Shown in pieces: positions 2,474 through 28,755 of a stretch of DNA of 64,000 nt (the stretch's first letter is position 1; the number at the start of each line of letters is the position of its first letter). Made by a program: the position numbers and the translations under genes. The notes beneath the pieces are model-generated. The model had not been told where the DNA came from and ran no database searches. It saw only the letters and a program-made list of their open reading frames with translations. Origin of the DNA: a bacterium (GTDB lineage: Bacteria; Electryoneota; JAOADG01); assembly GCA_963681965.1 (NCBI GenBank), contig OY820579.1:2528001-2592000 (forward strand). The letters are read 5' to 3'.

Positions 2474-2483
2474 GGAGTAATCA

Positions 2484-3350: not shown

Positions 3351-3354
3351 TCCG

Positions 3355-7888: not shown

Positions 7889-8091
7889 GGCGTGAGCGCG
7901 AGCGAATCGATCACGAATGGTATCTCCAACTGCGGGCTGTGATCTGCAAATGGTTTCCGGGATACACCTTTGCGGTAGTCGATACACTGCCGTTTGAACA
8001 GGTATATGAACTGTATGCCAGCGCCGAGTGGTTATCCGATCAGGAATCGAAGGCCGTTGAACAAAACAAACCGAAGCGGGGACGAAGGTAA
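7876..8091 (+). CDS. -1 frameshift extension of tail chaperone (gpGT equivalent); slippery site A AAA AAG at 7876-7882
   Basis: The -1 frame is open from the heptamer to TAA 8089-8091 (ALRRERERIDHEWYLQLRAVICKWFPGY...), filling the gap to the TMP ATG at 8098. It is missing from the ORF track. Confidence 0.85.
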   Translation, partial: KKALRRERERIDHEWYLQLRAVICKWFPGYTFAVVDTLPFEQVYELYASAEWLSDQESKAVEQNKPKRGRR

Positions 8092-8097
8092 AAAGAG

Positions 8098-11000: not shown

Positions 11001-11193
11001 CGTATCGAGCCGGATTTTCAATACGCAGCGAAGTCATCGTTCGACCAGCATCGACCGTAGCATTCGCATCGATGCGATCAACATTTCCGGCGTGTCTGGT
11101 GAACAAGGTGAATCGATTCGCGATCAGATTATTGCTGCACTATCCGATGCGCTTTCCGCGACTGACGGGGTCGAGGAGGCATCCATTGGCTGA
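8098..11193 (+). CDS. Tail tape measure protein (TP901-type core)
   Basis: 1031 aa, AADFES, GKTTFGEMA, ANPIGLII, repeated KHWDTV.GW.K units. Confidence 0.92.
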   Translation: MSQGFTQAIHIALVGTADLAAFDMATRQLNTLESTLHKASTTLASLGLKSTLFGAGMAFSVGTAIKSAADFESELAMVSTLLTAQTEQYLPKYKKELVDLAASSPKDSLEGLTKALYQTISANVPASDAMRVLTIASQSAAAGLTDTETAVDGITSVLNAYQMSAKEATRVSDIMFMAQNLGKTTFGEMAKELGGVLGTASAAGVSFEEIAAAITTITKRGINTAESVTAINMALQDIIAPSEKAKRASAKFGIELSLSKMHAMGFQKYLQYLSSGVGGSIENIAQLSDNVRGLKAILALTGKNANEAASDLTAMTVSANATRDAFAKVSDTVKAKWNHVTNALATLKETLGEPLLSPMAVVLDKVASIVNAFRQFAAVHPTLVSVGASFMATSASVFLFGGLLLLSASGVTALAANLLAIPTKLSALATAMKLSLPAGTGMLGILKAISGTILSVASPVLIAAGVVAGLFVAWKTNFLGLRDVVTAFWTAIKPLLTALWSTFKLLVTDVVYQIRDIAQAVTGWFTTWNSSFTGMQSPLIAFAMVTAYTVGFTIGLFRGFFDLLRTSPVMGTLLATGLGIGIFKLWGMSSAIGGIISLLKTLPYYTRVFGAELKYLSIKLAEIAANPKLAFEILRNAMTSGAGTAKNFAVSVYSSFLTALKGMWQFTLSAAQGIWQWALSLGSSIAFVVKNLAMLTWNLAVAGMKVVWFGMQWLITKAVMLAHAIATGVATSAQWLLNVAMTANPIGLIIAGVVALGAAFYLLYKHWDTVWGWIKQAALVAVLGIVAPFYLLWKHWDTVLGWLKIGFTAVGDFFSGIWDTVKQAGMNAADWVIEKINWLIGKINSVSSYLGFEIPLIPTFTGKASIPTQPAVIPVEVRTFTKDSNLVHNSPYTILTQQAQIPVAVTLDDFFLRLQDSLTKTLTNLLDLMTLRLEQFVMTTQQLSRLQPSLSFAGGSFDVGTPPSSSSIVSSRIFNTQRSHRSTSIDRSIRIDAINISGVSGEQGESIRDQIIAALSDALSATDGVEEASIG

Positions 11194-11959
11194 TCTCGTG
11201 TTCGGTATCATCAACCTGCTCCGCCAGAAGGAAGATGATTCAGCAAGGCTCAAGTCGTTGCAGGATAAAGTGAAGGCTAAGCGTACTAGTCAGTGGGATT
11301 CCCGCGAGTATTCTACTGCCGGAGAACTGATGTTGAAGCGAGGTGATACCGAGCTTCACTTATATCCGAAAAAAGTAGGGATCAAGCAGAGCATCAAGAT
11401 CGATGAGATCGAGATTCCGAAATCGTCTGGTAAGATTAAACAAGTACTTGGATACGAAGACACGGAAATCACGGTCACCATCGAGCTGATCAATCTCGAA
11501 GAAAATGGCAAAGTAGTAAAACCCCTGCGTGAGCGGGTCGAGTCGCTTCAAAAGTTATACCGCGAAGGAAAACAAAAGTTGCCGGTGCCATTGACGCTGG
11601 TTTCACCACTTCCCGAAATCGCCGGAATTGATCAGGTGTTCTGGAAAGAATTGCAGCTCGAGGATGATCCGGAGGGATACAACCTCGTCACTGCGCAGTG
11701 TGTTTTTGTCCAGTTCAATTCGATCAAGACTCAACTGGAAAATCAAGCAGCGTTACAAAGCGCACAACAATCGGCACAAAGTGATGCGACTGCGAATATG
11801 CCAAGTGAAATGCAACGACCTGATACGTCACAGGATGATGCACTGGCTCAACGGTTAGGTGCGACAGCGAAGAGTGGCGAGCGTGCCGGTTATACCCTGG
11901 GTTCGCTTGGCGACAGTATGCCCGAACATCCGGCTGCCGACGCATCGGTTACACACTAA
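11186..11959 (+). CDS. Tail tube initiator / baseplate-proximal protein (putative)
   Basis: Likely TTG start at 11186 after GAGGAGG; position after TMP. Confidence 0.55.
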   Translation: MADLVFGIINLLRQKEDDSARLKSLQDKVKAKRTSQWDSREYSTAGELMLKRGDTELHLYPKKVGIKQSIKIDEIEIPKSSGKIKQVLGYEDTEITVTIELINLEENGKVVKPLRERVESLQKLYREGKQKLPVPLTLVSPLPEIAGIDQVFWKELQLEDDPEGYNLVTAQCVFVQFNSIKTQLENQAALQSAQQSAQSDATANMPSEMQRPDTSQDDALAQRLGATAKSGERAGYTLGSLGDSMPEHPAADASVTH

Positions 11960-11971
11960 GGATTCATTTTT

Positions 11972-12757
11972 ATGGTTTTAGAACCTTATCAACTTGCCAA
12001 TCGAACACCGGTCACATCGGTCAAGTACAAAGACCTCGAGATCGGGGATGCGGTTAGTGTATTCGAAGTGACTTCGTTTCGTCGCGGCACTGGTGATACC
12101 GCCTGGCTGAAAATCCCGATTGCCACCGGATTCGATGGGGAATTTTTCGAACGGGGTGCACCAGTAATAATCCAATGGGGACTCGATAGCACTGACAATC
12201 TGGTGCAAATCTTCGATGGTGTGGTCCGCGAAGTGAAGGAGTTGGATCAAGCAATTCGGGTCGAGTTGGTCGACTATATGACATTGCTTCACGCCAAGCA
12301 GATCACGACCACCATCGAAGATGAAAATTCCGAAGCGATTATTCAGCAACTGGTAAAGCACACAGGACTCGCTGTTAAGCTTGAGACATCCGGATTGGAG
12401 TTGAAGAAGTTTCCACTGTTCAACCGGACACTCTTTGAAGCAATGACCCATCTGGCTGAGCGGGTGAAATTCGAACTGGGTAAAACGATGCTGTTCTGGA
12501 TACGAAACAGAACGCTGCTTTGGCAATCTCCCAAACCACCTGCCGAACCGGTCGTTTCCTTCGTTACCGGTTTGAACATCAACAACCGTGGGTCAAGCAA
12601 GTTGCAAGGATACTCTTGGCTCACTACCGGCATTGCTCCAGTGCACCACGGTGACACCATTGAAGTGGATGGTGAAGCGGTTGTGGCGGAACGTGTGTAC
12701 TACAAGTGGTCTCGTGGCGGCCGCAGTAAGATTTACTGGAAGCATGTCAGTGACTGA
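11972..12757 (+). CDS. Baseplate hub (gpD/late-control-like)
   Basis: 261 aa, IQWG..QIFDGVV motif, synteny before spike. Confidence 0.65.
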   Translation: MVLEPYQLANRTPVTSVKYKDLEIGDAVSVFEVTSFRRGTGDTAWLKIPIATGFDGEFFERGAPVIIQWGLDSTDNLVQIFDGVVREVKELDQAIRVELVDYMTLLHAKQITTTIEDENSEAIIQQLVKHTGLAVKLETSGLELKKFPLFNRTLFEAMTHLAERVKFELGKTMLFWIRNRTLLWQSPKPPAEPVVSFVTGLNINNRGSSKLQGYSWLTTGIAPVHHGDTIEVDGEAVVAERVYYKWSRGGRSKIYWKHVSD

Positions 12758-13412
12758 AACGTGCGAACATGATCTGCTGCAGCTCCTGCGCAAGGCGATG
12801 GAGACGATGCGTCCCGATCTATCTGGGTATATGCGCTTTCCGATGCGAGGAAAAGTGGTAGCAGTCGATGCGGATAAGTTCACAGTCGATGTACAGCCTG
12901 ATGACGAGTCAACACCACTGCTTCCTAAATGTCAGATTCTGACGCTTTGGGCAACCAACAGTCAGCGGATTGTGATTCTTCCGAAGATCGATGACGCAGT
13001 CGTGGTCGGCTTTCTCTGGGGAGATCCAACCCAACCATTTGTGATGGGATTTGTAACGGACACAGGGACATGTGGTAAACATCTCATCATCGAGCAGGGT
13101 AGCAGCCGGATTGAAATCGCGGAAGGTGGAGCAATCCTGATCGCAACTGATGCAACGCTGAATGTTACTGCCGGTGCGAAAATCATGATTAGTGGTGATG
13201 CCGATATCGATGTGATTGCTGCCGGAAAAGTGAAACTGTCGGCTCCGCAGGTTGAATTTGGCAGTAGCGCACAGGAAAAAGTGGTACTGGGTGATTCGTT
13301 CTTGAGCTATTTCAATACGCACATCCATACCGGAAATCTTGGTGCACCGACCTCGCCACCGATTCAACCGATGATGACAACGATGTTATCGGAAGTATCA
13401 AAAACGGAATAA
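12744..13412 (+). CDS. Baseplate central spike (gpV-like)
   Basis: OB-fold-like start (GKVVAVD, PKIDDAVVVGFLWGDPTQPFV), beta-helix, C-terminal FNTHIH (HxH metal-binding apex). Confidence 0.85.
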   Translation: MSVTETCEHDLLQLLRKAMETMRPDLSGYMRFPMRGKVVAVDADKFTVDVQPDDESTPLLPKCQILTLWATNSQRIVILPKIDDAVVVGFLWGDPTQPFVMGFVTDTGTCGKHLIIEQGSSRIEIAEGGAILIATDATLNVTAGAKIMISGDADIDVIAAGKVKLSAPQVEFGSSAQEKVVLGDSFLSYFNTHIHTGNLGAPTSPPIQPMMTTMLSEVSKTE

Positions 13413-14901: not shown

Positions 14902-15342
14902 TTGGAACAACATCTCGGCACTGACTTGAAATTTGATGACTTAGGAGATTTAGCCGTCTCCACGACCGGTGATATTGCATTGGTCTCAGGTCGGGACTGT
15001 CTGTTGGGCGATCTGGCAGATGCCCTACGGACACAACCGGGTGATTTGTTCCCTCATCCCGAATTTGGCTGTGGTTTGCTTGGCATGCTAGGCGTGAATG
15101 ATACACCGCTCAACCGGACGCTGGCACAGCGATTTATCACAAAGACTCTGGAGAATGATCAACGGGTGAAACAATCAACGATACAGGTGGAGCTGCTTTC
15201 GTTCAGTAGCGAGGAAAAGACCTTCCGGGCACGGTTTGAAGCAGTCGGTGATACCGAGACTCACACACTTGTCTGGGGCTATGGCATTAAAAGCATCGAA
15301 GATCTAAAACGGAATTCTACGAATTATGAAATCGTACAGTGA
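14902..15342 (+). CDS. Baseplate wedge subunit, gp25/gpW-like
   Basis: LGTDL, HPEFGCGL, LENDQRV motifs. Confidence 0.8.
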   Translation: MEQHLGTDLKFDDLGDLAVSTTGDIALVSGRDCLLGDLADALRTQPGDLFPHPEFGCGLLGMLGVNDTPLNRTLAQRFITKTLENDQRVKQSTIQVELLSFSSEEKTFRARFEAVGDTETHTLVWGYGIKSIEDLKRNSTNYEIVQ

Positions 15343-16528
15343 CATTCGCGATGAGTTGATTACGAAGGTGGCGGCGAAAACTCCGTTCACTAATTTCTCG
15401 ACCTCGAGTGGGATACGGAACCTGCTCGAAATTATCGCGTATGTCATCGCGTCACTCTACAATTTTGTTTTCAAGGTGTCGCAGCAAGGTTTTTTGATGA
15501 CTGCTACTGGTGAGTGGCTCGACCTGCGTGCTCGCGAATGTGGTGTGGAGAGGTTGCCCGGCAGCAAGGCACAAATTTGGATCACATTCTACCGTGCACA
15601 ATCGCCGAACACTCTTACCATACCAGCCGGAACAATCGTTAAAAGTCGTGCGGATTCCAGTGGAAATGAATACCGTTTTTCCACGATCCAGGCAGCATCA
15701 ATTCCAGCCAATGAAGCATTTATTCGAGTACTGGTTGAAGCTGAAGTGATTGGCACCTGCTGCAATCTTGGCGCGGGAACCGTTACCCGAATCGTTACCT
15801 CGATTTCCGGTGTTACCAGTGCCATCAATGAGAATTTTGAAGCTAACGGTAAGCAAGTATCGGCACTCTTTCGCGAAGGTTCGGATCGCGAAACTGATAC
15901 GGCACTTCGCAAGCGAGCACAACTGGCTTGGCAGACTCTTGGTGTCGGTGGTAATCGTGCCGCTTATGAGCAATGGGCACTGTCAGTTCCGGGGGTTCGA
16001 GCTGCCCAGATCCTCGATGATTTTCCGTTTGGACCCGGCACCGTCGGAGTCGTGGTTCTTGGTGCCAGCGGCATGCCAACACCGCAGCTACTGTCCGATG
16101 TCTTGATTTACTTGCGAAAGCGTAAACCGCTCACTTCCGATGTTCGAGTGGTTGGTCCCAGTAAACGCACGGTAAATGTTTCAATGAAAGTGTGGCGATT
16201 AGCGAGTGCCGACCGTGACCGTATTGATACGGCAGTCAGTCAAGTGGTGGCATTGCATACCAGCAAATTGCTGCTTGGTGAAGGATTGCTGGTTGCCCGG
16301 TTATTGCAGGCAATTCTTAGCATCGATGGTGTCTACAACGTTCACATCGAACAGCCACAATCCGATTTGCTGTGTGGTCCCACGGAGTTTCTGGAACTGG
16401 GTTCGCTAACGATTGAACATTATCTGAAGGGGCGCAGTTACCAGGACACTGGCATCATTACCGAACCTGTAGAATCGACAAATGGCGATGAGGTACTGGC
16501 GCTTCGCAGGGAGAATTTTTACGCATGA
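15326..16528 (+). CDS. Baseplate J/gp47-family protein
   Basis: ATGEWLD, GSDRETDTALRKR, YEQWALSVPGV, GPGTV motifs. Confidence 0.92.
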   Translation: MKSYSDIRDELITKVAAKTPFTNFSTSSGIRNLLEIIAYVIASLYNFVFKVSQQGFLMTATGEWLDLRARECGVERLPGSKAQIWITFYRAQSPNTLTIPAGTIVKSRADSSGNEYRFSTIQAASIPANEAFIRVLVEAEVIGTCCNLGAGTVTRIVTSISGVTSAINENFEANGKQVSALFREGSDRETDTALRKRAQLAWQTLGVGGNRAAYEQWALSVPGVRAAQILDDFPFGPGTVGVVVLGASGMPTPQLLSDVLIYLRKRKPLTSDVRVVGPSKRTVNVSMKVWRLASADRDRIDTAVSQVVALHTSKLLLGEGLLVARLLQAILSIDGVYNVHIEQPQSDLLCGPTEFLELGSLTIEHYLKGRSYQDTGIITEPVESTNGDEVLALRRENFYA

Positions 16529-17196
16529 GCGCCATTGGAGAGTTTCTCTGGATGCTTCTGCCCGGTATCCGCAAACAAAAGGACACAGAGCATTCCGTGT
16601 TGTATGGATTGCTTACTGCAATCGGTGAATTGCTCGACGATGTGAAATCGGATATCCGGCGCATGCGATTGTCGTGGTATGCACAGACGATTGAATCCAG
16701 TAACAGTTACTACCAGCAACCCGAACGTAGTAATGATCTCGATGAGATTGCATTAGGAAAATCAACTCGCAGATATCCAGATGAATCGAATGAATTACTG
16801 GCAGATCGGCTCACCGACTGGACGAATTTATGTAAATGGAATGGCACCAAGCCGGGACTCAAATTGTTGATCGAATCGCAAGGATTCGTCTGCCGGGAAA
16901 TCGTTGAAAGTTATGCCGATAGTCAAGGTTTAATACTACTGTCTCGTGTCGATCAACCGCTCGAAGCGGAGATCAATCTGACGCATCTGTTTTCATCTGG
17001 TGATGCGCAGAAGGAAGAATACCAAGAATATCGGCAGAACCGAGTCTACCGTGCCAGTGAGCTTGTGTGGAATTTCTGTTTTGCGGTGAGTGTCGGAAGT
17101 AATGGATTACCGGAACACCGACGTGAACAATTGCAACAAGCGATTTATGAATTCAAACCGGCGCATACCCGCGCCCAAATCATGTTTGTGGACTGA
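16525..17196 (+). CDS. Baseplate wedge protein, gpI/YmfQ-like
   Basis: Follows J; ends with FKPAHT motif. Confidence 0.7.
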   Translation: MSAIGEFLWMLLPGIRKQKDTEHSVLYGLLTAIGELLDDVKSDIRRMRLSWYAQTIESSNSYYQQPERSNDLDEIALGKSTRRYPDESNELLADRLTDWTNLCKWNGTKPGLKLLIESQGFVCREIVESYADSQGLILLSRVDQPLEAEINLTHLFSSGDAQKEEYQEYRQNRVYRASELVWNFCFAVSVGSNGLPEHRREQLQQAIYEFKPAHTRAQIMFVD

Positions 17197-17200
17197 ATAA

Positions 17201-19321
17201 ATGAAGAAACTACTGTACTTCTCCGGCATCAAACCGACCATCGAAGATCTCGAATTCCAACAGGACGGGATAGAACTGGCGTTGTCTTCGCTGCAATCCG
17301 ATCTGGTAAGTGATGGGATCGTGCGAGGACTATCGGTCGGGGAAGGCATGAATACCGGTGAATACGTTGTATCTCCCGGTGCCGCATTTGTTAAAGGAAA
17401 ACGAGTTGAAGTTCCGGAAGCGACGACTTTTCAATCTGCAGTGAACCGGTTTGTGGTATTGCAATACTCGCAGTCTACCAGTAATGAAGTATCACATTTC
17501 CTGACCGGTGAGAAACATGCAATTTACGGAGATGACAGTTTTGCTATTGAAGTTCGTAGTACCGATGCAATCACAGTCGGTGAAATACTGCTCGCGAAAA
17601 TCGAGTCGGATGGATCAGTATCTGATCTTCGCACTCCAGTTTCGCTACTAATTGATGAACGACTTCATTCACTGAACAGCGATACCCATACGATATCGCC
17701 GGTGTTCCGCATTGGTGGAGCAAACGGACCTGCCGCGTTAACGGTTGCAAATCTATTGTCCGAATCGCCCGAGCTGCGCAATTTGCTGCGTAATGGACTC
17801 GTCAATTATCTCGATGGTAAAGGTGACCAATTATTGTTAACCCGGAAGATTCCATCACAGCCGAATGCGCCGGTGCTGTTGCTTTCGAATGTCCAGCTCA
17901 AAGTGTATGGACAGTCCTCCCGATCCACTGAATTGTCGCTGGCACTCGATTCGTATCAAGCAGCCTCGATAACCGGACAGCAGTTATCTTCGCATGTGTC
18001 GGCGATTTCTGAACTGCGTTCACTGGTTGTTGCCAAACAAATCGCAGGTCTCACACTCGATCAACTTCGTGGCGACGTGACACTACCGGGTGGAACCTAT
18101 GATCATGAAGTTCGCATCCGAAAAAATGAACTAATCCGAAGCGGTGTGTTGGCGAATACTAGGTTGCCGGGAACGGTATCGGTATCGAGTGGTTCGCAAG
18201 TCTTGACTGGCATCGGAACCGCATTCGACAACAGCTATATCGGCAAGCGAATTCTGATTGATCCCGGTGCGACAGGAACTCCGGTAGAATTACTAATTTC
18301 GTCTGTTTCCGATGCGACTCACGCGTCACTTTCTTCGGCATCAACCGTCAACATTTCGAATGGGGTGTTCTATTTTGCCGATGTACCGGAGATTGGATTT
18401 GGTGGTTCGATTACAACGATTTCTGCGATGCTTGGCGGTATCGATGCGGTTAAATCCGGGAAAGAGCAGTCCCGTTCACTGGCGCTTCAACAGCAGACTG
18501 ACGCTGCCACGATTGTCAGCAGCCATGCCGTAAAACTATCGCAACCGGTCAGTAACCAGTATGGTCTATTTCTCACCTGGGCAAAACCCGTACTCGTGGA
18601 TCGCGAGGAGATTACCCACTATCTCGTCCGGGTTGTGGAGCTGATTTCCGATGCTGGTTCACTATCCAACAATCTGACTGTGGAAACCCTGGAAGCGAAT
18701 CATTCCGATCTGATTTTTCGGGTTGCCGAAAGCGTTACCAAGAAACGCCAGCAAATCGAAATCGATGATGCTGTCACGACTGTTGCCACAGGCTCCACCA
18801 CTCAGCAGATCGTTTATACCGGCAATGTGTCCATCGCATTGAATCAGCGCATCGTTATCGGAACCGAAAGCGCTATTGTTCGTTCGGTCGATCCGGCGAC
18901 CAAGACGATCCAGCTTCTAACACCTTTATCTATTGTACCCATCGCTAACACTCCCTTGGTAACGAAGAAATTACTGTTCGAATCCGATGTCCGGACGGAA
19001 AGTTTCTCACTTCCGGTAGAGCCGGGACAACGTTTGCTGTTGTTTGTTCGGGCTGTATCCGAGTACGGTGTAGCGTCCCAATGGAGCAACGCACTGGCAG
19101 TGGATGTGAATTCACTGGCAACAGGTAGTGGCAAAACGGTATCCCAGTTGGCGGAGAGTGAACGACAAACGCTTACCATTGCCAAACAGATCGAACGCGA
19201 ACAAGTAACTCGTGATCTTTCCGAACAACTCTTTGCCCTGCAACGCGCTATCGCTGAAGCACCAACACAGGAGCAACTCGACGCGATTGCCAGCTCGATC
19301 AGTACAGGAGCGGCACTCTGA
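17201..19321 (+). CDS. Baseplate-anchored tail fibre/adaptor protein
   Basis: 706 aa; N-terminal DGIVRGLSV..VSPGAAFVKGKRV anchor-like segment; GTVSVSSGS..GIGTAF fibre motif; FN3-like end motif VRAVSEYGVASQWS. Confidence 0.65.
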   Translation: MKKLLYFSGIKPTIEDLEFQQDGIELALSSLQSDLVSDGIVRGLSVGEGMNTGEYVVSPGAAFVKGKRVEVPEATTFQSAVNRFVVLQYSQSTSNEVSHFLTGEKHAIYGDDSFAIEVRSTDAITVGEILLAKIESDGSVSDLRTPVSLLIDERLHSLNSDTHTISPVFRIGGANGPAALTVANLLSESPELRNLLRNGLVNYLDGKGDQLLLTRKIPSQPNAPVLLLSNVQLKVYGQSSRSTELSLALDSYQAASITGQQLSSHVSAISELRSLVVAKQIAGLTLDQLRGDVTLPGGTYDHEVRIRKNELIRSGVLANTRLPGTVSVSSGSQVLTGIGTAFDNSYIGKRILIDPGATGTPVELLISSVSDATHASLSSASTVNISNGVFYFADVPEIGFGGSITTISAMLGGIDAVKSGKEQSRSLALQQQTDAATIVSSHAVKLSQPVSNQYGLFLTWAKPVLVDREEITHYLVRVVELISDAGSLSNNLTVETLEANHSDLIFRVAESVTKKRQQIEIDDAVTTVATGSTTQQIVYTGNVSIALNQRIVIGTESAIVRSVDPATKTIQLLTPLSIVPIANTPLVTKKLLFESDVRTESFSLPVEPGQRLLLFVRAVSEYGVASQWSNALAVDVNSLATGSGKTVSQLAESERQTLTIAKQIEREQVTRDLSEQLFALQRAIAEAPTQEQLDAIASSISTGAAL

Positions 19322-19944
19322 TGTCCGATGCCATTCTGAATCTATCGGGACTGCCACCAAAGCGCGCAGCAACACTGTTCGATCTGCTGGCACGTACTCG
19401 TCGCGATAGTAAATGGCAATCGATTCCGGTGCGGGTGGTATCAGTATCAGACGATGGAACGCTCACCATAAATGGTCTTCGGGATAGTCGGTATGCGTTG
19501 CTGTTTTCAGATCCGACTGCTATGTCGTTTTCCCGTTTCAAACTTGATGTTGGCGATAAATCGAAGTACCGGACGATCTATCTGAGTGATCCAATTCCGA
19601 CACCGGTATTGCAATCGGTTGTTGGTTCAGTTCGGCTTAATGAAATCATCGCCCGTTTGAGCTGGACAATCCAAAGTGATGTCGCCGTTACCGCGTTCGA
19701 TGTTTACTGGAAGTGTGAGAACGAACCAGCATTTACTCTCGCAAGTACAGTTGCTGATCGGACAGCACGATCCTGTGAAATATTCGGACTACAAGCCGAG
19801 AGCCGGTTTCGCTGGTACATCGTGGCACGAGGAGCTGGATCAATGAATCGTAAGTCGAATACTGTAGAAATGTTAACACCGGTCTCACCAGTCGCTGAAC
19901 CGAATTTGATCGTGAATGGAAATTTTGAGACTGCCATTTGGTAG
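19321..19944 (+). CDS. FN3-like domain tail protein ending in first strand of a CBM-like domain
   Basis: LSWT..FDVYW..GLQAESRFRWYIVAR..SN fibronectin-III pattern; terminal NLIVNGNFETAIW. Confidence 0.65.
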   Translation: MSDAILNLSGLPPKRAATLFDLLARTRRDSKWQSIPVRVVSVSDDGTLTINGLRDSRYALLFSDPTAMSFSRFKLDVGDKSKYRTIYLSDPIPTPVLQSVVGSVRLNEIIARLSWTIQSDVAVTAFDVYWKCENEPAFTLASTVADRTARSCEIFGLQAESRFRWYIVARGAGSMNRKSNTVEMLTPVSPVAEPNLIVNGNFETAIW

Positions 19945-19961
19945 TTAGGAGATGATATAAC

Positions 19962-22577
19962 ATGGCACAACCGATTAAAATTTCAACTGTCGAAAAACTG
20001 TTCGGCAACCAGTCGATGGAAATCAATCCGGATGGAAATGCCGGGAGTGTATTGACCGACCTGACTAAGACCAACTTTGTCAATCTACAAGGTTTGACAT
20101 CGGTTACAGTATCCGGGTACATCAATGCGAAGACATACACTGGCGGTTACATCGTTGCCCGGGCAGTGTTCTTCGATGTCAATGATGCACAGCTTGGCAC
20201 CCATGACTGGATAACACTTTCGGCAACTACTTCCGGATTCACCCGCTTCTACCAGACCTATTACCTGTCGCAAGCACCGGTTCCTGCCAATACCGTCAAG
20301 ATGAAATTGCAGTTCGGTGGTATCCAGAAAACCGGGGTCAATCCGAACTTCGATGCATTCATCGATGGAGTAAAAGTCGAGCAGGGCGACAAGCTCACCG
20401 CCTATACCGACTATACGCTGAAAGAAAACGATTCACTTGATCTGGTTGGCGATGGTGTCATTTTCAAAAAGATTACCGGTGTCAGCAGTAGCAATCAGGT
20501 CACCGCGAACTCAATTGAATCTGCTGCTGTTACTTCAGTGAAAATCGCCGATGGTGCAGTCGCCACAGCGAAAATTGCTGCCGGCGCAGTTACGACCAAT
20601 GAACTCGGTGCCAATGCAGTTACAACCGGTAAACTGGCGACTGGAGCCGTTACCAGTAACGAGCTGGCTGCCAATTCGGTCATTGATACGAAGATTGCTA
20701 GCAGTGCCGTAACCAATGCGAAAATCGCAACCAACGCGGTCGACAGCACCAAGATAGCTGACAGCTCGATCTCGACGGCTAAGATCAATGCTGGCGCAGT
20801 CGATGGAACCAAGATCGCTACCGGTGCAGTTGATAATGCACAATTAGCTAACAATGCGGTCGATAATTCAAAGATTGCGGATAGTGCAGTATCGAACACG
20901 AAGCTCCAGGACGGTGCAATTACCAATTTGAAGATCGCATCGGGATCGGTGGCTGAGGATCGTTTGAACACTGCGCTCACGACTAAACTATCCAAGCACC
21001 TTACGGACGGAAATTTCAAGGGCGATGTATTTGCCAGTGATGGTACTACTAAGCTCATCGATGCGACTACCGGAAAAGTAACGACTGCATTACAGACTTC
21101 CAGTGGTGCTTCGCTAAACGACCGGGTTGAGGCGATCTACAGCGATGTCTATAACAAGGATGTCGCACTCCCAGTCATCGATAAAAATGTCAACAAATCC
21201 TTGGTGCATGCCACCTACAAGACCTATCGTCCCGGAACGACCACAGCCGATCTGAACATTGGTGTTACCGGTGACGCCTGGGATAGTCTGTTCGATCTTA
21301 CCCGTGCTGATAATGGTGAGGATTTGCTCGATGCATCTGGTGCACCGATTAAAGTAGTTGCGTTGTGGGGAAAACAAACTAAAGCGAGTCCAATTTCGGC
21401 AGGCAGTGATCCGAATGGTGTCGGGGCTGGATGGTCTCGCAACGATGGTGATGGCACCACTAATTCGACCTGGTTTGAATTATCTGCGGTCCCGACTGCA
21501 AACTTCAACATCGTTTATTCTATCCGTAAGAAACTGTCTACGCTACAGACTCGCGACTTGGTTACCGTTGGTGTCATTAAAGGTGGTCAATCCGACGCCA
21601 ATATTACCGGCGCACTGCAGGATCTGAAGGGCACAACCAACTGGAACGATGCGGTTCCGAGTGGCCGGAAACTCACCGATCTTACCACGACCAAAGATGC
21701 CGGGGCAACCTATATCATTGCTGATGGTAAGGTTAAGGGAACCTCGATTGTCGCTGGTGAAGTCGGAACGACCCAGCTCGCTGATAATGGTGTCACCACC
21801 GCCAAGCTTCCCGATAACGCGATTACCACTCAGAAAATCAATGCCGGAGCGGTTACTGGTGCAAAGATCGCTTCGGCGACGATTACCGGTTCCAATGTTG
21901 CCAATGCGACCATAACTGGTACTCAGATTGCATCGAGTACGGTAACTGGCAGCAACATTGCCTCGGCAACCATTGCGCAGGGTAATCTCGCGAACAACAG
22001 TATCGGGTCCGCACAAATCGTCGATGCAAACATTACTACTGCGAAAATAGCGGCACTAGCAGTTGACAATACTAAACTCGCAGATGGATCTGTTACCAAT
22101 GCCAAGATCGGTGCAAATGCGGTTGATGCAGCCAAACTTGCGAATGGTGCCGTTGGAACGACTCAACTTGCCAACTTGGCTGTCGATAATACCAAGCTTG
22201 CCGATAGCAGTGTCGGTACGAGTAAGCTCGCAAACCTCGCGGTTGACTCAATCAAGATTGCTGACAGTGGTGTTACCACAGTGAAGATTGCGGCAAATGC
22301 GGTCGATGCCTCGAAAATTGCCTCGGGTGCTGTAGGAACCACTCAGCTTGCTAATAGCGCAGTTGATTCAACCAAGCTGGCAAACAATGCGGTCACTGCC
22401 GGAAAGATTGCGACAAACGCGGTTGTGAACGGCAATATCGCCGATGGTGCGATCACCGATACCAAGATTTCCGATGGATCGGTAACCACTGCCAAACTGA
22501 ATGCGACCGCGCTTTCGGTATTCGATGGTCGCAATCTGGTGCAGAATCCTTCGTTTGAATCGGGAGCGTGGGTCTGA
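19962..22577 (+). CDS. Long tail fibre with 10-aa repeats
   Basis: 871 aa, AGGAG RBS; N-terminal CBM-like domain; two blocks of AVT.AKIADG decamers; terminal NLVQNPSFESGAWV. Confidence 0.8.
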   Translation: MAQPIKISTVEKLFGNQSMEINPDGNAGSVLTDLTKTNFVNLQGLTSVTVSGYINAKTYTGGYIVARAVFFDVNDAQLGTHDWITLSATTSGFTRFYQTYYLSQAPVPANTVKMKLQFGGIQKTGVNPNFDAFIDGVKVEQGDKLTAYTDYTLKENDSLDLVGDGVIFKKITGVSSSNQVTANSIESAAVTSVKIADGAVATAKIAAGAVTTNELGANAVTTGKLATGAVTSNELAANSVIDTKIASSAVTNAKIATNAVDSTKIADSSISTAKINAGAVDGTKIATGAVDNAQLANNAVDNSKIADSAVSNTKLQDGAITNLKIASGSVAEDRLNTALTTKLSKHLTDGNFKGDVFASDGTTKLIDATTGKVTTALQTSSGASLNDRVEAIYSDVYNKDVALPVIDKNVNKSLVHATYKTYRPGTTTADLNIGVTGDAWDSLFDLTRADNGEDLLDASGAPIKVVALWGKQTKASPISAGSDPNGVGAGWSRNDGDGTTNSTWFELSAVPTANFNIVYSIRKKLSTLQTRDLVTVGVIKGGQSDANITGALQDLKGTTNWNDAVPSGRKLTDLTTTKDAGATYIIADGKVKGTSIVAGEVGTTQLADNGVTTAKLPDNAITTQKINAGAVTGAKIASATITGSNVANATITGTQIASSTVTGSNIASATIAQGNLANNSIGSAQIVDANITTAKIAALAVDNTKLADGSVTNAKIGANAVDAAKLANGAVGTTQLANLAVDNTKLADSSVGTSKLANLAVDSIKIADSGVTTVKIAANAVDASKIASGAVGTTQLANSAVDSTKLANNAVTAGKIATNAVVNGNIADGAITDTKISDGSVTTAKLNATALSVFDGRNLVQNPSFESGAWV
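20498..20966 (+). repeat. Degenerate 30-bp (10-aa) coding repeat block 1 in tail fibre
   Basis: AVTSVKIADG-AVATAKIAAG-AVTTNELGAN... periodicity. Confidence 0.85.
21731..22502 (+). repeat. Degenerate 30-bp (10-aa) coding repeat block 2 in tail fibre
   Basis: AVDNTKLADG-SVTNAKIGAN-AVDAAKLANG... periodicity. Confidence 0.85.
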
Positions 22578-23323
22578 TGAGTTACTTCGATACTGATAAT
22601 TCACATTCCGTGTTTGGTGGCAGTTCACTGCGGTTGGTCGGTGATTCGACCACACCGAATGTCATCACCGGACACAGCAATGATATTCCTGTTGCCAACC
22701 GGGATTCGGTTGTTATTTCCGCTTATGTGTTCGCTCCGGCAATTACTGCTGGCACATCATTCACAGGCAAAATAGAATACGTCGACAAGAACGGCAGCTC
22801 GCTCGGAAGTGGGGACTGGTTAAAACTTACATCATCGAACAGCCAGTTTACCCGGTACTATGCGATCAAGGATGTAACCACTTTTCCCAAGGATACCGTT
22901 GCCATCCAATTGTCATTCTCCCTAACCGAGAGTGCCGGGAAACCAACTGGTACGGTTTACGTCGACTGTGTTAAGTGTGAGTATGGCAACAAACTGACTG
23001 GATATTCCGAGTCAGTGTTCTATGAAGAAATCTACCAGCACATCGGTGGCTTCGGGATTTCGAAGATCGGTACATCACAAATTGACAAGGATGCTGTAAC
23101 CAGTGAACAACTAGCAATCGACTTTACCAGTCTGGAAAAAATAACTGACACCGCACTGCAGTTCGATGGTTCAATCCTGACCACCAACAAGCAATTGAAT
23201 GCTTGCGCTGGAATGTCAGCTAACGGGAAAACCGGCATTACACAAACAATCGATGTGCCGGATACTGGTGGCGGGAAATACACCATTGCTATTACCGATG
23301 GCATCATTACGAGCATCACATGA
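22577..23323 (+). CDS. Distal tail fibre / receptor-binding protein with CBM-like N-terminal domain
   Basis: ATG 22577 overlaps upstream TGA, with GGGAG RBS. N-terminal domain is paralogous to that of 19962..22577 (FG..S, DW..L...S.FTR.Y, D.VK.E.G.KLT.Y). C-terminal ITDGIITSI. Confidence 0.7.
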   Translation: MSYFDTDNSHSVFGGSSLRLVGDSTTPNVITGHSNDIPVANRDSVVISAYVFAPAITAGTSFTGKIEYVDKNGSSLGSGDWLKLTSSNSQFTRYYAIKDVTTFPKDTVAIQLSFSLTESAGKPTGTVYVDCVKCEYGNKLTGYSESVFYEEIYQHIGGFGISKIGTSQIDKDAVTSEQLAIDFTSLEKITDTALQFDGSILTTNKQLNACAGMSANGKTGITQTIDVPDTGGGKYTIAITDGIITSIT

Positions 23324-23607
23324 GCGAACCGGAACACATTGAACATTCTCAACTTGAGCCGCCATACTCCTGCCAGTACCACCTGGCAAAAATGGAGCAG
23401 GTTTCTCAACAACTAGCCGATCTACGCGATGCGGTGAAAGAACTAAACTCATCGATTAAAGGGAATGGTAAGGAAGGTATCATCGTCAAGGTGGACCGCA
23501 ACACCAACTTCCGGTTGCTGATGACGAAGCTGCTCTGGGTGTTATTTACGCCACTGTACGGTGGTTTGATCGCATTCGTTTTTCAACATTTTATGGCACA
23601 TCACTGA
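23320..23607 (+). CDS. Holin-like/hemolysin XhlA-like membrane protein
   Basis: Coiled coil, GNGKEG motif, single C-terminal hydrophobic helix; first gene of lysis cassette. Confidence 0.55.
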   Translation: MSEPEHIEHSQLEPPYSCQYHLAKMEQVSQQLADLRDAVKELNSSIKGNGKEGIIVKVDRNTNFRLLMTKLLWVLFTPLYGGLIAFVFQHFMAHH

Positions 23608-23614
23608 GGTAAGC

Positions 23615-24031
23615 ATGAGCCTATTAACTGCCGTGCCCATTGTGGGACAGATCATCGATAAAGCCGCCGGTATCATCGACAAGTGGGTGCCGGACAAAGA
23701 CCTTGCTGCAAAGTTGAATCACGACCTGCAGGCGCAGATGCTTTCGCTCGACTACAGTGCACTCGAAAAGGAAATCGATGCCAAGGCGAAAGTACTGGTC
23801 GCGGAAGTACAGGGACAGAGCTGGCTGCAACGCAACTGGCGACCATTGCTCATGCTCGTGTTCACATACATCGTTGCACACAATTTCGTGATCGCACCGA
23901 TCTTCGGTATCACGTCAGTACCCGTACCGGAGCAAATGTGGACATTGCTTAATATTGGCATTGGTGGTTACATCGTTGGGCGCAGCGCTGAGAAAATTGC
24001 GACTGTTGTGAAAAAGGATGATGCAAAATGA
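23615..24031 (+). CDS. Holin, 3TM (GTA-type) family
   Basis: SWLQRNWRP, GIGGYIVGRSAEK family motifs; two hydrophobic helices. Confidence 0.85.
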   Translation: MSLLTAVPIVGQIIDKAAGIIDKWVPDKDLAAKLNHDLQAQMLSLDYSALEKEIDAKAKVLVAEVQGQSWLQRNWRPLLMLVFTYIVAHNFVIAPIFGITSVPVPEQMWTLLNIGIGGYIVGRSAEKIATVVKKDDAK

Positions 24032-24594
24032 CCTTCGATGAAATTGAATTTGTTCCTGCTGCACAAGGAAATTATTCTTCACGTCCTCGTGGTACAGCGA
24101 TTGATACCATCGTCATTCATTACACCGCGAATGGCAGTATCGAGGATACGATTGCATGGTTTCAGAATCCGGCGAACAAAGTTTCCGCGCATTATGTAGT
24201 TGGTCTTGATGGTCAAATTGTTCTAATGGTGCCGGTTGCCAAGCGTGCCTATCATGCCGGTGTTTCATCATTGAGTGGTCGCACTGGTGTCAATGCATTT
24301 TCCATCGGTATCGAACTTGTCAACTGGGGTCCCATCAAACTTCGTGACGAATCCTTTTTCGCATGGCCTGGCGATTACACGCACCATTTTGAAGGGGATA
24401 CACCGTTACTTATCGCTGGCGAATACTGGCAACCCTACCCAGAACCGCAGCTAACTGCCCTGGAGCAGCTGATACAACTCCTCCGCGAAGAGCATCCAAT
24501 TCAGTGGATTGTGGGGCACAACGAGATAGCACCCGAACGCAAGATGGACCCAGGTCCAGCGTTTCCGTGGGAGCGTATTCGCTCCAACGTTTGA
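24028..24594 (+). CDS. Endolysin, N-acetylmuramoyl-L-alanine amidase (Amidase_2/AmpD-like)
   Basis: IVIHYT, VSAHY, AYHAG, SIGIEL, GHNEIAPERKMDPG. Confidence 0.93.
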   Translation: MTFDEIEFVPAAQGNYSSRPRGTAIDTIVIHYTANGSIEDTIAWFQNPANKVSAHYVVGLDGQIVLMVPVAKRAYHAGVSSLSGRTGVNAFSIGIELVNWGPIKLRDESFFAWPGDYTHHFEGDTPLLIAGEYWQPYPEPQLTALEQLIQLLREEHPIQWIVGHNEIAPERKMDPGPAFPWERIRSNV

Positions 24595-24751
24595 CCTTCT
24601 CTACACTTCCATAAACATCCATAATTACACCCCTTCTAATATCCTGTAAGCCTTACCAGTAAAGCGTTTGCAGGTATTGCCTTGACTTGACTTCGGCAAT
24701 CACTTCCTCGTAATGTGTTGCCAACGAGTTGTTCTAACACAAGGCAATACC

Positions 24752-25666
24752 ATGATATACACGATATACAACCAACGCTTCGGTGTCGAGATTGAGACTG
24801 TAGGATGCGAACGAGCCAAGATTGCCAAGGCAATTGCAGAAGTCGTAATCGGTCAGATATCACTTGATCCTACTGGTGCATACAACGCAACGCTGGTAAC
24901 GCAAACGGATGGCAGAATCTGGCGCATCCAAAACGACGCTTCGGTAGCAACAGTGAATGGAGTAAAGGGGTCGGAAATTATCTCACCGATACTCCTTTAC
25001 AGCGATATAGAGAATCTACAAAAGATAGTAAGAGCGGTTCGCAATGCGGGTTGTAAGACTTCATCCTCATGCAGTGTCCACGTGCATGTTGAGGGCGCTC
25101 CGCATACACCGCAAACGCTTAGCAACCTTGCCAAGCTCTATTACCGCAACGAGGATTTACTGTTTCAAGCGGTTGGAACATTGCCATCCCGCAAGGTGCG
25201 CTTCACCAAGCCGATGGAACAGGATTTTATCGACCGTATTGCCAGTAGTCGACCGACGACGATGGATGAATTTAACAAGTTGGTTTTCGGTCAATACACG
25301 CCGCATCCGGAACATTACAACAATAGTCGATACCGAGCGATCAACTGGGTGAATCTTTGGAGACCAATCAACACGGTCGAGTTTAGGCTCTACAATAGCA
25401 CGTTAAATGCCTTGAAGGTCACCGCCTGGGTGCAACTCTCGCTAGCACTGTCGGTACGCGCTCTCAACATGAAGCAGACAACCCATACCAAGATCAATAC
25501 CGACAATCCCAAGTTCAACTTCCGGGTCTTCCTTGTATCCTCACTTGGCATGATTGGCAACGAGTTTAAGTCGACCCGCAGCATCCTACTCAAGAATCTA
25601 CCGGGCAACAGCGCTTGGCGATACGGTAAGCCAGAAAATCATGTTGAGGTCGCCAATGCCAAGTGA
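24752..25666 (+). CDS. Putative amidoligase (Amidoligase_2 family)
   Basis: FGVEIE, DASV, EIISPIL, CSVHVHV, SRY, TVEFRL motifs. Possible promoter TTGACT(24687)-18nt-TAATGT upstream. Confidence 0.88.
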   Translation: MIYTIYNQRFGVEIETVGCERAKIAKAIAEVVIGQISLDPTGAYNATLVTQTDGRIWRIQNDASVATVNGVKGSEIISPILLYSDIENLQKIVRAVRNAGCKTSSSCSVHVHVEGAPHTPQTLSNLAKLYYRNEDLLFQAVGTLPSRKVRFTKPMEQDFIDRIASSRPTTMDEFNKLVFGQYTPHPEHYNNSRYRAINWVNLWRPINTVEFRLYNSTLNALKVTAWVQLSLALSVRALNMKQTTHTKINTDNPKFNFRVFLVSSLGMIGNEFKSTRSILLKNLPGNSAWRYGKPENHVEVANAK

Positions 25667-26111
25667 TACTTGCACCATACCGTATTTCGCGTACGGGGCG
25701 AATCTCAATCTGGTTGGAATGGACTGCCGTTGCCCTGGTCATCTTCCTCGCTGTATTGCATACATCGAAGATTACCAGCTCGTCTTTCGAGGTGTAGCAT
25801 CCATCGAGCCAGCGGAGGGACACCGGGTGTATGGCGCATTGTACTTACTCGATGAAAAACATCTTGCCGCACTTGACCGTTTCGAAGGATACCCGCGACT
25901 GTATCGCCGTGAGATTTTATCACTCCGCAAAGCCGGAAACAACCACCGTACGGAAGCATGGGTGTACCTCATGAATGCTGAACGCAACGATTATTACCCA
26001 CCATCCGGCGGATACCTGAGCACCATTATCGACGGCTGTCACGACTGGGGAATTCCCAATATATACATCCGTGAAATTCACTCAATCGCAAGGAGAAGCA
26101 AACAATGGTAA
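25656..26111 (+). CDS. Gamma-glutamylcyclotransferase-like (AIG2/GGCT) protein
   Basis: YFAYGANLN, LDRFEGYP.LY, PS..YL motifs; GAGG RBS. Confidence 0.9.
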   Translation: MPSDTCTIPYFAYGANLNLVGMDCRCPGHLPRCIAYIEDYQLVFRGVASIEPAEGHRVYGALYLLDEKHLAALDRFEGYPRLYRREILSLRKAGNNHRTEAWVYLMNAERNDYYPPSGGYLSTIIDGCHDWGIPNIYIREIHSIARRSKQW

Positions 26112-26461: not shown

Positions 26462-27175
26462 ATGAATCAGCAACCACAACGCAAGAAGCAAGTCGGCGAC
26501 TGGGTCGTCGTCACAGGCGGACAAAATCGCGGTATTGCCGGTGAAATAACCGTGATCAACCATCCTCGAATAACAGTTACCACTGCAGATGGAAATGAGA
26601 TCCATACCACCAGTGGATGGTTGGAATTTGCTAAGCGACCCGCAAAAAGAAAAGTGGAAGTGTCGTCGTTAGATGCACCAGTACCTGCGAGCGAACCAAT
26701 CGATTTATCTCGTGTCGCATTTGTTCACAGTGTAACTACCATCGAGTCGGAACCACCAGTTATTGAGCCGTTTGAAACTGTGGAAACGACACTGTCCGAA
26801 GTGGAACCCTCTCTCATCCCGGTGCCTGAGCCGGACGTCTCTTCCATTGCCGAGCCCGTATCTGTGCCACCGGAGTTAGTTACCGAGCAATCATCCGAAC
26901 CAGCACCGGAAAATGCCACTGTAGCCATCGTGGCTACGAACCCCTACAGCGAAATGACGGTCGTGCAACTGCAGTTGCTCGCCAAAGAGCGCGGCATCAG
27001 TATTGCCCGAACCAAGAGCGACTTCGTTCGGATTCTTACTGCTCAAGTTCCGGATATCGATGTCACTACGCTGAAAGGTCCCGAGCTATACAACAAGGTC
27101 GCAGAGCACCATATCTCTAGGCTCCGCTCCAAACACGATTTGGTTGATTTGCTGTCGCAAGGGGTTAGCCAATGA
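26462..27175 (+). CDS. Hypothetical protein: KOW-like N-terminus, Pro/Glu linker, duplicated SAP/Rho-N-like helical C-terminus
   Basis: VGDWVVVTGGQNRGIAGEI (KOW-like); two similar units GISIARTKSDFVRIL / HISRLRSKHDLVDLL; AAGGA RBS; upstream TTGACA(26380)-16nt-TACATT. Confidence 0.65.
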   Translation: MNQQPQRKKQVGDWVVVTGGQNRGIAGEITVINHPRITVTTADGNEIHTTSGWLEFAKRPAKRKVEVSSLDAPVPASEPIDLSRVAFVHSVTTIESEPPVIEPFETVETTLSEVEPSLIPVPEPDVSSIAEPVSVPPELVTEQSSEPAPENATVAIVATNPYSEMTVVQLQLLAKERGISIARTKSDFVRILTAQVPDIDVTTLKGPELYNKVAEHHISRLRSKHDLVDLLSQGVSQ

Positions 27176-28755
27176 TCCAACGCTTTGAAAATCTGAGTGC
27201 AACAGGTACGCCGCCGCTTCATGCAGTGGCGTATCTGCGCAAGTCGACGCGGGAGATGCAAGAAAACTCTATCTACAACCAACAGCTCGCGATTGACAAG
27301 TTTGCACAACACCACAATATCAAGATCGTAAAATACTTCATCGATGATGGCATCTCCGGTCTCACCATGCAGAAACGGGATGCCTTCAAGGAACTCATTA
27401 ACGATTACGTCGTTGGTGGTAAAGATCATTTTAGCATCATCCTGGTGCTGGATGTAACTCGCTGGGGTCGCTTCCAGGACATTGACGAATCAGCGCACCT
27501 GGAATTTCTTTGTCGGAAGCATGGCAAGGAAATCATCTATGTGACTGAGGAATTCAAGAACGATAATTCGATCATGGATTCACTGATCAAGGCGCTGAAA
27601 CGAGCAATGGCTGCTGAGTATTCCAAGAATTTGAGCGACAAGGTCCTTGCCGGTTCACTTACCATAGCAAAGCAGGGATTCCGAGTCGGTGCGCCTGCTC
27701 CCTACGGATATGAACGAATGCGCCTCGACCAGCAACGTAATCCCGTTGGAATTCTTCGCGATGGTGAACGAAAAGCGATTGCCAATGAACGTGTTACCCT
27801 TGTACCCGGTTCACCGGAAGAGACTGAAACCATTCGCCACATATTTTCCGCATTTACTGAACGTGGTCTGCGTGAAGGTAAAATTGCGGTTGAATTGAAT
27901 GAACGAAAAGTTCCCTCACCGGGTGGAGGTGAGTGGTCGGAAAATACGATCAGGGTGCTACTGCGCGATGAAACGTACACCGGTACTCTGCGGTACAATC
28001 GTACATCGTCGCGACTGCATGGACCTACGAAGAAAAATCCGCGTGACCGGTGGGTACTGGTTCCGCAGGCATTCGAAGCGATTGTCTCTCCGGATACCTT
28101 CGTGCAAGCCCAACAGATATTTCAAGAGCGACATCCAGTTTGGAATGATCAGGATATTATTCTCCGTTTACAGGAGCTGTTTCAGAAGCATGGAAAGCTG
28201 ACTGGATTGATCATTGAATCAACACCGGAGATGCCTTCTACCACCATCCTGAAAAAGCGATTCGGTTCGTTGTTCAATGCCTACAAATTGGTCGGGTATG
28301 TACCACCCTATGATATCCGATTCTTCGAATTGAAGGACATGGTAAAATCCATCGAAGAAAAATTGTGGCAAGATGTACTTGCAGCACTTAACGAGATGGG
28401 ACTCACCGTAGTTGATCATGGCACTCACCTTTGTCTCAATGAACAGCTCAACATTCAACTCATGGCTTCCAGTATCCGTAATAACAATGGGAAGAAACGC
28501 TGGGCATACCGCTTCGACCATCAGGTTGATATTGATCTGACTCTTGCTGTACGCCTTGCTGATGACGAAGGAAACATTCTTGATTTCTACTGTTTCCCAA
28601 CTATCGCAATGGAGACGGAAAAATTATTTGTCTCGTGGTCAAACGGAATCTACATCGATGCGTTTCGGTTCGATACCCTGATCGATGTGTACGATTTGTT
28701 TGGTGACACTGACCGTATTAGAAAGGAGGAACCAACGTATGAAAACCGTTCGTAA
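27172..28755 (+). CDS. Large serine recombinase (resolvase + recombinase domains, atypical C-terminus)
   Basis: AYLRKST catalytic motif, DVTRWGRFQ, AAEYSKNLS, APYGY; no Zn ribbon seen. Confidence 0.92.
   Translation: MIQRFENLSATGTPPLHAVAYLRKSTREMQENSIYNQQLAIDKFAQHHNIKIVKYFIDDGISGLTMQKRDAFKELINDYVVGGKDHFSIILVLDVTRWGRFQDIDESAHLEFLCRKHGKEIIYVTEEFKNDNSIMDSLIKALKRAMAAEYSKNLSDKVLAGSLTIAKQGFRVGAPAPYGYERMRLDQQRNPVGILRDGERKAIANERVTLVPGSPEETETIRHIFSAFTERGLREGKIAVELNERKVPSPGGGEWSENTIRVLLRDETYTGTLRYNRTSSRLHGPTKKNPRDRWVLVPQAFEAIVSPDTFVQAQQIFQERHPVWNDQDIILRLQELFQKHGKLTGLIIESTPEMPSTTILKKRFGSLFNAYKLVGYVPPYDIRFFELKDMVKSIEEKLWQDVLAALNEMGLTVVDHGTHLCLNEQLNIQLMASSIRNNNGKKRWAYRFDHQVDIDLTLAVRLADDEGNILDFYCFPTIAMETEKLFVSWSNGIYIDAFRFDTLIDVYDLFGDTDRIRKEEPTYENRS

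Follow-up and report, generated by a model that had tools for sequence, protein, structure and literature searches.

Chaperone-usher pili (FimA, PapA), type V pili, archaeal cannulae and TasA fibres are head-to-tail fibres in which a neighbour supplies the strand that is missing from a β-sandwich, giving a joint that is non-covalent and mechanically strong. In the pili, an N-terminal extension fills the groove of a missing C-terminal strand in an Ig-like fold, the products are long homopolymers, and both a chaperone and an usher are needed. A similar joint is probably used in the tail fibre of a prophage from a bacterium of the Electryoneota (JAOADG01; assembly GCA_963681965.1). The stretch of DNA that was analysed, referred to as the window, comprises 64,000 nucleotides (nt), positions 2,528,001 to 2,592,000 of contig OY820579.1. 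It carries three consecutive genes, g1, g2 and g3, whose products would form a distal fibre joined head to tail by complementation of a split jelly roll of the CBM_4_9 type. Unlike in the pili, the segment supplied would be the first one of a CBM-type jelly roll and would come from a C-terminal tail, and three different members follow each other in a fixed gene order. The g1-g3 system has no sequence relationship to the pili and is a possible analogue in mechanism only, not a family member. No chaperone or usher family was found with Pfam and PHROGs among the eight proteins encoded from 16525 to 24594.

The long tail fibre of phage T4 is also built from the products of consecutive genes (gp34-gp35-gp36-gp37), with segments joined end to end non-covalently. 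Its likeness to g1-g3 is that of a multi-gene, end-to-end fibre; no sequence similarity was seen (no match among 50,697 phage records), and no split domain is known at the T4 fibre joints. The way in which separate proteins are joined in multi-gene tail fibres is known for few phages. A full-text literature search, with subscription journals and supplements outside its range, returned no description of strand complementation or of a split domain at a phage fibre joint. In the SpyTag/SpyCatcher pair, engineered from a CnaB domain, a short β-strand peptide completes a truncated β-sandwich and is locked by an isopeptide bond, whereas the split described here is natural and nothing indicates a covalent bond. 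Homologous to the domain in question, and carrying the motif N..N..FE...W, are the fused CBM_4_9-like knobs of tail-fibre proteins (PF02018; PF22637, "BppA domain 1"; proteins P0011-P0054). These knobs form one continuous chain, whereas in the window and in 9 of 50 representative proteins the chain is cut after a conserved W between two genes.

Two junctions that divide one domain between neighbouring genes

A preliminary description of the window, made from its letters alone, had reported that a carbohydrate-binding-type domain is interrupted at the same point at two consecutive gene junctions. As the terms are used here, the plug is the first domain segment, N-L-x-x-[NG]-x-x-F-E-x-x-x-W, at the extreme C-terminus of the upstream protein, and the socket is the remaining ~150 residues at the extreme N-terminus of the downstream protein. 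The features at the two junctions are these (lengths of proteins in amino acids, aa):

19321..19944, + strand: g1, 207 aa; adaptor with an N-terminal part, an fn3-like domain and a C-terminal plug
19903..19941, + strand: plug 1, NLIVNGNFETAIW, the last 13 codons of g1; stop TAG at 19942-19944
19945..19961, + strand: junction 1 spacer, 17 nt, with AGGAG at 19947-19951
19962..22577, + strand: g2, 871 aa; fibre shaft with socket, 10-residue repeats, central domain, repeats and plug
19962..20426, + strand: socket 1, g2 residues 1-155; CBM_4_9-like domain lacking its first strand
22533..22574, + strand: plug 2, NLVQNPSFESGAWV, the last 14 codons of g2; stop TGA at 22575-22577
22577..23323, + strand: g3, 248 aa; distal fibre protein with socket and C-terminal tip domain
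22577..23041, + strand: socket 2, g3 residues 1-155; CBM_4_9-like domain lacking its first strand

At junction 1, the g2 frame contains a TGA (19953-19955) 5' of the g2 ATG at 19962. At junction 2, the likely start of g3 is the ATG at 22577, which overlaps the g2 stop by one base (TGATG) and has a GGAG at 22563-22566; the g3 open reading frame (ORF) has an alternative start in the same frame, GTG 22568, and all six homologues begin with MS[YF][FY]DT. The two sockets, each ~150 aa, are paralogous, with 29% identity over 146 aa (E 4e-18). Reading of the ORFs agrees with the preliminary description on the coordinates and C-terminal peptides of g1 and g2, the TGA at 19953 in the downstream frame, a separate Shine-Dalgarno sequence for each downstream gene (AGGAG for g2, GGAG for g3) and the paralogy of the two downstream remainders.

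A six-frame translation of the complete 4,244,867-bp genome contains 11 occurrences of the pattern N[LMIVF]..N..FE. Chance can be excluded as the source of the junction motifs because 4 of the 11 occurrences are junctions (two in the window and two in a second copy of the locus), all of them 13-14 codons before a stop. Assembly error can also be excluded because contigs from four runs of two studies, one run possibly being the source sample, bridge and agree at both junctions: seven of the eight bridging pieces show no differences and the eighth shows one, with no insertions or deletions.

The relation of the split genes to fused forms was examined with profiles. An exhaustive search of 1.84 billion representative proteins with a socket profile (alignment A2, five sequences; E<=1e-3) returned 50 representatives. 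The domain is internal in 39 of these, two are N-terminal fragments, and in nine proteins that start with M (P0003, P0007, P0008, P0009, P0010, P0016, P0025, P0030 and P0055) the domain begins at residue 1-3, so that the chain starts within 1-3 residues of the point behind the W. A clear N..N..FE...W motif stands directly in front of the domain in 31 of the 39 internal copies, as in P0014, where the motif NYIVNGSFEYGTW is followed by the domain start GGGETQSTDYAKFGKYS. The remaining eight fail the strict pattern and by eye mostly carry degenerate versions, such as NLVRNSDFASGASSW; among them, one protein is truncated within the motif and one has no recognisable motif. Fused and split copies share the C-terminal signature Y[VI]D.V......G, with profile E-values for the internal copies down to 1e-14. 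A word-based search had not turned up any longer, fused relative of g3 in a set of 574 candidates; it was superseded by the profile search, in which the fused forms appeared.

A second, local profile was built from 17 fused forms and has 166 positions, with the conserved W at position 16. The upstream C-termini (g1, g2 and their orthologues) align from positions 1-4 through 16, ending at their last or next-to-last residue, and the downstream N-termini (g2, g3 and their orthologues) align from positions 17-24. In the window, the g1 plug covers positions 3-16 and ends on the final g1 residue (independent E-value, iE, 0.037, weak when taken alone), and g2 residues 858-870 cover positions 4-16 (iE 0.0031). 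Across the orthologues the plug matches are weak by themselves (iE 0.001-0.15 for the g2 type, 0.02-16 for the g1 type), and their value lies in their position. The sockets match far more strongly, g2 residues 7-154 at positions 22-162 (iE 2e-27) and g3 residues 8-149 at positions 24-162 (iE 8e-25). By this alignment, plug and socket are complementary pieces, without overlap or gap. The downstream N-termini align from position 17 on, and the socket proteins therefore have nothing extra at their N-termini to stand in for the missing segment; the downstream subunits lack positions 1-16 and, as in donor-strand systems, are by sequence without one strand of their complete homologues. The earlier statement that the downstream genes carry the rest of the domain is borne out by both profiles, and homologues occur in both forms, fused or with the split point kept. 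Split inteins were considered and rejected, since the plug ends at W and the socket starts directly after it, with no space for intein halves.

Conservation of the cuts and co-loss of the two pieces

Junction 1 was found in seven loci (the window, L005, L011, L013, L015, L016 and L017), and junction 2 was also found in seven (the window, L005, L006, which is in the same record as L009, L008, L015, L016 and L017). In every locus with context, a plug-ending gene is directly followed by a socket-starting gene, at 14 of 14 junctions. The gene-level split is certain and old.

L005 is a second element in the same genome (positions 1262000-1278000) with the genes g1', g2' and g3'. Its g2' and g3' proteins are 83% and 86% identical to those of the window, and its junction peptides are NLIVNGNFETAVW and NMVQNPSFESGAWI, each followed by a stop. 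Positions 2425-7723 of L005 match 2-5314 of the window (79%), and positions 7724-13244 match 19076-24595 (80%). What this element lacks is exactly 13.8 kb, reaching from the sheath gene into g0, the gene 5' of g1, most of which is gone. It is a deletion derivative with no tail that has nevertheless kept a variant fibre cassette, with g1', g2', g3' and the lysis genes intact.

Two related genomes of the same family also carry the junctions (L006/L009, L008, L011 and L013). At junction 2, the terminal peptide is NLVQNPSFESGAWI in L008 and NLVQNPSFESGAWV in L006. At junction 1, L011 has NLIINGNFEQMVW with a TGA stop, 14 nt, and then MANQITIST, and L013 has the terminal peptide NLIVNGNFETATW. A phylum-wide search of 79 genomes gave matches in three, all within the window's own family.

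A search with split forms as the query retrieved a further family of 17 proteins (328-349 aa), all starting at the socket, one of which has the name of a Delongbacteria metagenome-assembled genome. Members are encoded by L015-L017, metagenome contigs with a guanine-plus-cytosine (GC) content of 64-66%, compared with 47% here, and these contigs hold a whole A-B-C chain of genes. Gene A encodes ~205 aa and ends NLQ[RW]GGSFE...W and a stop, gene B encodes 874-875 aa with a socket at its start and the C-terminus NL[IV]INGSFET..W[IV], and gene C starts with a socket. Identity to g2 is 39-40% for gene B, and identity to g1 is 31% for gene A of L015 (E 1.3e-22). Taken together, the g2 orthologues P0008, P0009 and gene B of L015-L017 show 37-69% identity to g2.

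The 14 junction peptides keep N, F, E and W unchanged, and L is replaced once, by M. Their codons vary (AAT/AAC, TTG/CTG/TTA, TTT/TTC, GAG/GAA), and the plugs of the window and L006 differ by five synonymous and no non-synonymous changes in 13 codons. N858, S864, F865, E866 and W870 are invariant in seven g2 orthologues, with the residues between the conserved plug positions and the sequence just upstream free to change. This pattern indicates that the junction peptides are under purifying selection. Plugs end exactly at W in 7 of 7 junction 1 loci and have one extra residue (V or I) after W in 7 of 7 junction 2 loci, which may mark joint specificity; the g2 orthologue P0009, which is known as protein only, ends at W.

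Plug and socket can also be absent together. P0074 (376 aa) corresponds to residues 1-186 of gene A (41% identity) followed by residues 154-324 of gene C (62% identity). Everything between these two parts is missing from it, from the plug (gene A 193-205) through the whole of gene B to the socket (gene C residues 1 to ~150). P0075-77 have the same length and like termini. All four are metagenomic, and P0074 is encoded on the same 275-kb contig as L015. They are natural proteins that join the adaptor core directly to the tip, and the joint absence of plug, gene B and socket is what would be predicted if plug and socket were the two halves of a single connector and had no further essential function. 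The co-loss also suggests that the CBM_4_9-like domain may serve mainly as a joint. At two other proteins, tandem CBM_4_9 chains end 5 residues (P0017, 744 aa) and 1 residue (P0053, 527 aa) after the W of one more motif; these termini may be further C-terminal plugs or truncations at contig ends.

Fold, docking and alternative explanations

The preliminary description had taken the motif as the usual beginning of a CBM4/9-like domain, and the Pfam boundaries agree. In P0017, the first residue of the CBM_4_9 match (E 6.4e-41, four stretches) is the N of NLLSNSDFE, at profile position 2, and in P0047 a match below threshold likewise begins on the motif. The socket profile matches P0017 at E 1.6e-11, and this protein also carries CBM_4_9_1 (E 3.4e-14). 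Scanned separately, g1-g3 stay under the gathering score of CBM_4_9 (PF02018); the sockets show profile-level homology to carriers of the family. An AlphaFold 2 monomer model of the fused P0014 (16-row alignment) contains a confident β-sandwich at residues ~161-290, with block values of the predicted local distance difference test (pLDDT) of 77-93. Its Foldseek matches include CBM22 4xup (E 5e-9), CBM16 2zew (TM-score 0.72 by target length) and the phage fibre proteins 8zdq/8zdp and 7xyc. From the structures of CBM4 and CBM22 and from the Pfam boundaries, the motif is presumably the first strand, packed in the core of the sandwich. A PDB sequence search with the profile of the fused family returned nothing, and a PDB match of the socket profile to 9k9w, a phycobilisome linker, was rejected as spurious (E 5.9e-4, with no stretch passing alone). 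The ESM Atlas gave clusters scoring 0.90-0.92, one with CBM_4_9 on 11% of its members, as a lead only.

Docking was predicted with ESMFold2 for junction 2 only, by combining g3 residues 1-155 (25-row, split-only alignment) with g2 residues 827-871 (7 rows), the alignments being our own. The split-only alignment A8 was used in place of the mixed fused and split alignment A4, in which the first five residues were misaligned. The complex scored 0.56 (runs of 0.57, 0.51 and 0.56) compared with 0.01 for the best of three controls, which the tool grades as weak support. In calibration, 58 of 80 solved complexes reached its mark, as did 2 of 110 mismatched pairs; at scores of 0.60 or under, only 7 of the 80 solved complexes did so, together with both of the passing mismatches. 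The runs agree in at least 68% of contacts, with a partner pLDDT of at least 49, a low confidence that may stem from a 45-residue construct that is mostly fibre repeat without a partner. Socket 2 has a pLDDT of 84-85 with its cognate partner and 77-78 with unrelated partners. The earlier proposal that the C-terminal peptide of one subunit completes the fold of the next, for which multimer prediction had been suggested, is favoured by the comparative evidence, whereas the complex prediction gives it a weak pass and the monomer model of P0014 places the motif poorly.

Several observations count against a split, strand-completed domain of this kind. No CBM family is found in g1, g2 or g3 at E<=0.1 when the proteins are scanned singly with Pfam. 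In the P0014 model, the motif (residues 144-156) has a pLDDT of 43 (141-150) and 67 (151-160), and DSSP assigns it no strand; its presumed role as a core β-strand, taken from the Pfam boundaries and from CBM4 and CBM22 structures, gains no support from that model. The AlphaFold 2 model of g3 alone (6-row alignment, mean pLDDT 48.2) is unusable and enters no claim about the fold. The complex prediction passes weakly by the tool's own calibration, uses our own alignments and returned no contacts. The three high-GC loci L015-L017 all come from a single metagenome, and the 50,697 phage records hold no match for g3, the 7-kb DNA, the g2 socket or P0014, and so no cultured phage relative. Finally, plugs 1 and 2 are very alike, a likeness that might let g2 bind itself or g1 bind g3 directly. 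Viral contigs in IMG/VR contain no relative of g3 with its five homologues (alignment A1), P0009, P0025/P0030/P0055 (alignment A3), P0053 or P0017.

Some of these points would fit an arrangement in which the split is real and conserved and the plug and socket do not pair, the motif serving instead, for example, in trimer capping or in recognition by an assembly factor or the baseplate, with the truncated domain folding alone and other surfaces joining the fibre. The weak docking score, the want of confident packing of the motif in the P0014 model and a socket pLDDT that remains at 77-78 without the cognate partner all lean this way. We nevertheless consider it unlikely, given that the very residues conserved before the domain in fused forms (N, L, F, E and W) are those retained in the plug, that socket proteins begin immediately behind the W position and have no substitute for the absent segment, that plug and socket are lost together in P0074, and that the two genes are directly adjacent at all 14 junctions.

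Complementation between separate proteins would also be unnecessary if the domain were made as one chain by recoding, be it a frameshift, stop read-through or ribosomal bypass. Junction 2 does have a constant -1/+2 frame relation (TGATG or TAATG), and the stop at junction 1 shares its frame with the following ATG in L005 and L016. However, the junction 1 spacers are 8, 8, 9, 14, 17 and 18 nt long with a frame relation of 0 in two loci and 2 in four, and recoding can be set aside because spacers and frame relations vary in this way. The stop codons also differ (TAG/TGA at junction 1, TGA/TAA at junction 2), the window has an in-frame TGA between the g1 stop and the g2 start, and every downstream gene is equipped with a separate ATG and ribosome-binding site. 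In the window, a TGA 19 nt ahead of the g2 stop closes the -1 frame before junction 2, and reading by eye shows no slippery heptamer after it. A conserved frame relation together with a recoding signal was not found, and 26 independent proteins (9 from the socket-profile search and 17 from the split-form search) are called with their start at the split point, which leaves recoding very improbable. That the stops are lesions of a decaying prophage, or assembly errors, has a practically negligible probability. Decay does occur in this genome, as the second copy is a deletion derivative without tail genes, and the preliminary description had named strain-specific lesions as an alternative. This is contradicted by the same two cuts in seven loci each, which come from two or more lineages of deep divergence (g2 identity of only 37-40%) and have junction peptides under selection; the contigs of four runs from two studies agree, and the ORFs are otherwise intact.

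Prophage setting and the proposed fibre

Window positions ~150-28755 are a myovirus-type prophage. The host genome is one contig of 4,244,867 bp with 47% GC. Other features of the prophage are as follows:

2484-3350: major head protein
5577-7007: sheath
8098-11193: tape measure
as far as 16528: baseplate hub and wedge genes, the last being phrog_6 at 15326-16528
16525-17196: Mu gp48-like gene, a weak match below threshold
17201..19321, + strand: g0, 706 aa, an ORF 3' of the baseplate wedge genes
between g3 and the holin: 95-aa gene
23615-24031: holin, three transmembrane segments (3-TM), by Pfam and PHROG
24028-24594: amidase, by Pfam and PHROG
27172-28755: serine recombinase, in the 3' part of the prophage

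The assignment of g1-g3 as tail-fibre genes draws on the match of g2 to phrog_892 tail fibre (E 8.5e-67) and on the tail-module position, behind the sheath, tape measure, baseplate hub and wedge genes and before holin and amidase. The g0 stop overlaps the g1 start (ATGA), and g0, from its position, is the presumed proximal fibre or baseplate-attached part; its counterpart in L015, 5' of gene A, has 658 aa and a similar C-terminus. The fn3 match of g1 (E 3.3e-4, 21.2 bits) lies under the cut-off of 25. No Pfam or PHROG family is found above threshold in g3, the tip domain of which belongs to no known family, and g3 is the final structural gene 5' of the lysis genes.

The g2 shaft has 10-residue repeats, A-x-x-A-V-x-x-x-K-[IL], at window positions 20480-20990 and 21850-22520 (residues ~175-340 and ~630-850), with a Pentapeptide_4 match below threshold (27.3 bits, cut-off 38). 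The holin belongs to GTA_holin_3TM (E 1.4e-17; phrog_3427), a family named after gene-transfer agents. Directly 3' of the endolysin, at 24713-26111, are an Amidoligase_2 gene (E 2.5e-51) and a gamma-glutamyl cyclotransferase-like gene (GGACT, E 7e-17), and L006 has a 303-aa ORF 3' of its amidase that is similar in sequence as judged by eye, unaligned. The region 27172-47570, past the serine recombinase, holds two ParB-like genes, a regulator with a helix-turn-helix and an M78 peptidase, and a run of very large genes, the first of which (32483-35983) encodes an SNF2-type helicase with a NOV_C domain; the others encode 982, 954, 370, 995 and 590 aa.

The gene cuts, their exact position relative to the fused homologues and their conservation are established, and the docking of the proteins, its stoichiometry and any exchangeability are inferred. 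The g1 plug would insert into the g2 socket and the g2 plug into the g3 socket, and each insertion would restore the full fold without a covalent link, a complementation of the fragment or donor-strand type. The fibre would thus be a nicked version of that of its fused relatives, cut in two successive knob domains in the loop after the conserved W. Since neighbouring genes lie so close together, with a 1-nt overlap or with a spacer of 8-18 nt and a ribosome-binding site, the partners are probably synthesised in a coupled way.

The plugs differ little between the two joints or between lineages, so that a single anchor, g1, could take up g2 or g3. It is a possible, if doubtful, extension that plug and socket are a general natural connector for extracellular fibres, in which g2 may be inserted, omitted or repeated and exchangeable cassettes vary the length or the tip, P0074-77 being the form with zero joints. 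In this extension, a structural metal site of the kind found in CBM folds may lock the joint, held between the plug's invariant E and an equally invariant D (D130 of g3) in the last strand of the socket. The same trick may exist outside this family, as the termini of P0017 and P0053 hint.

If the proposed joint is real, phages would have a simple and portable means of linking fibre proteins that matches donor-strand complementation in pili. It would account for the exchange, gene by whole gene, of the distal segments that recognise the host while folding stays undisturbed, and it would provide a natural peptide-and-socket pair for building modular receptor-binding proteins.

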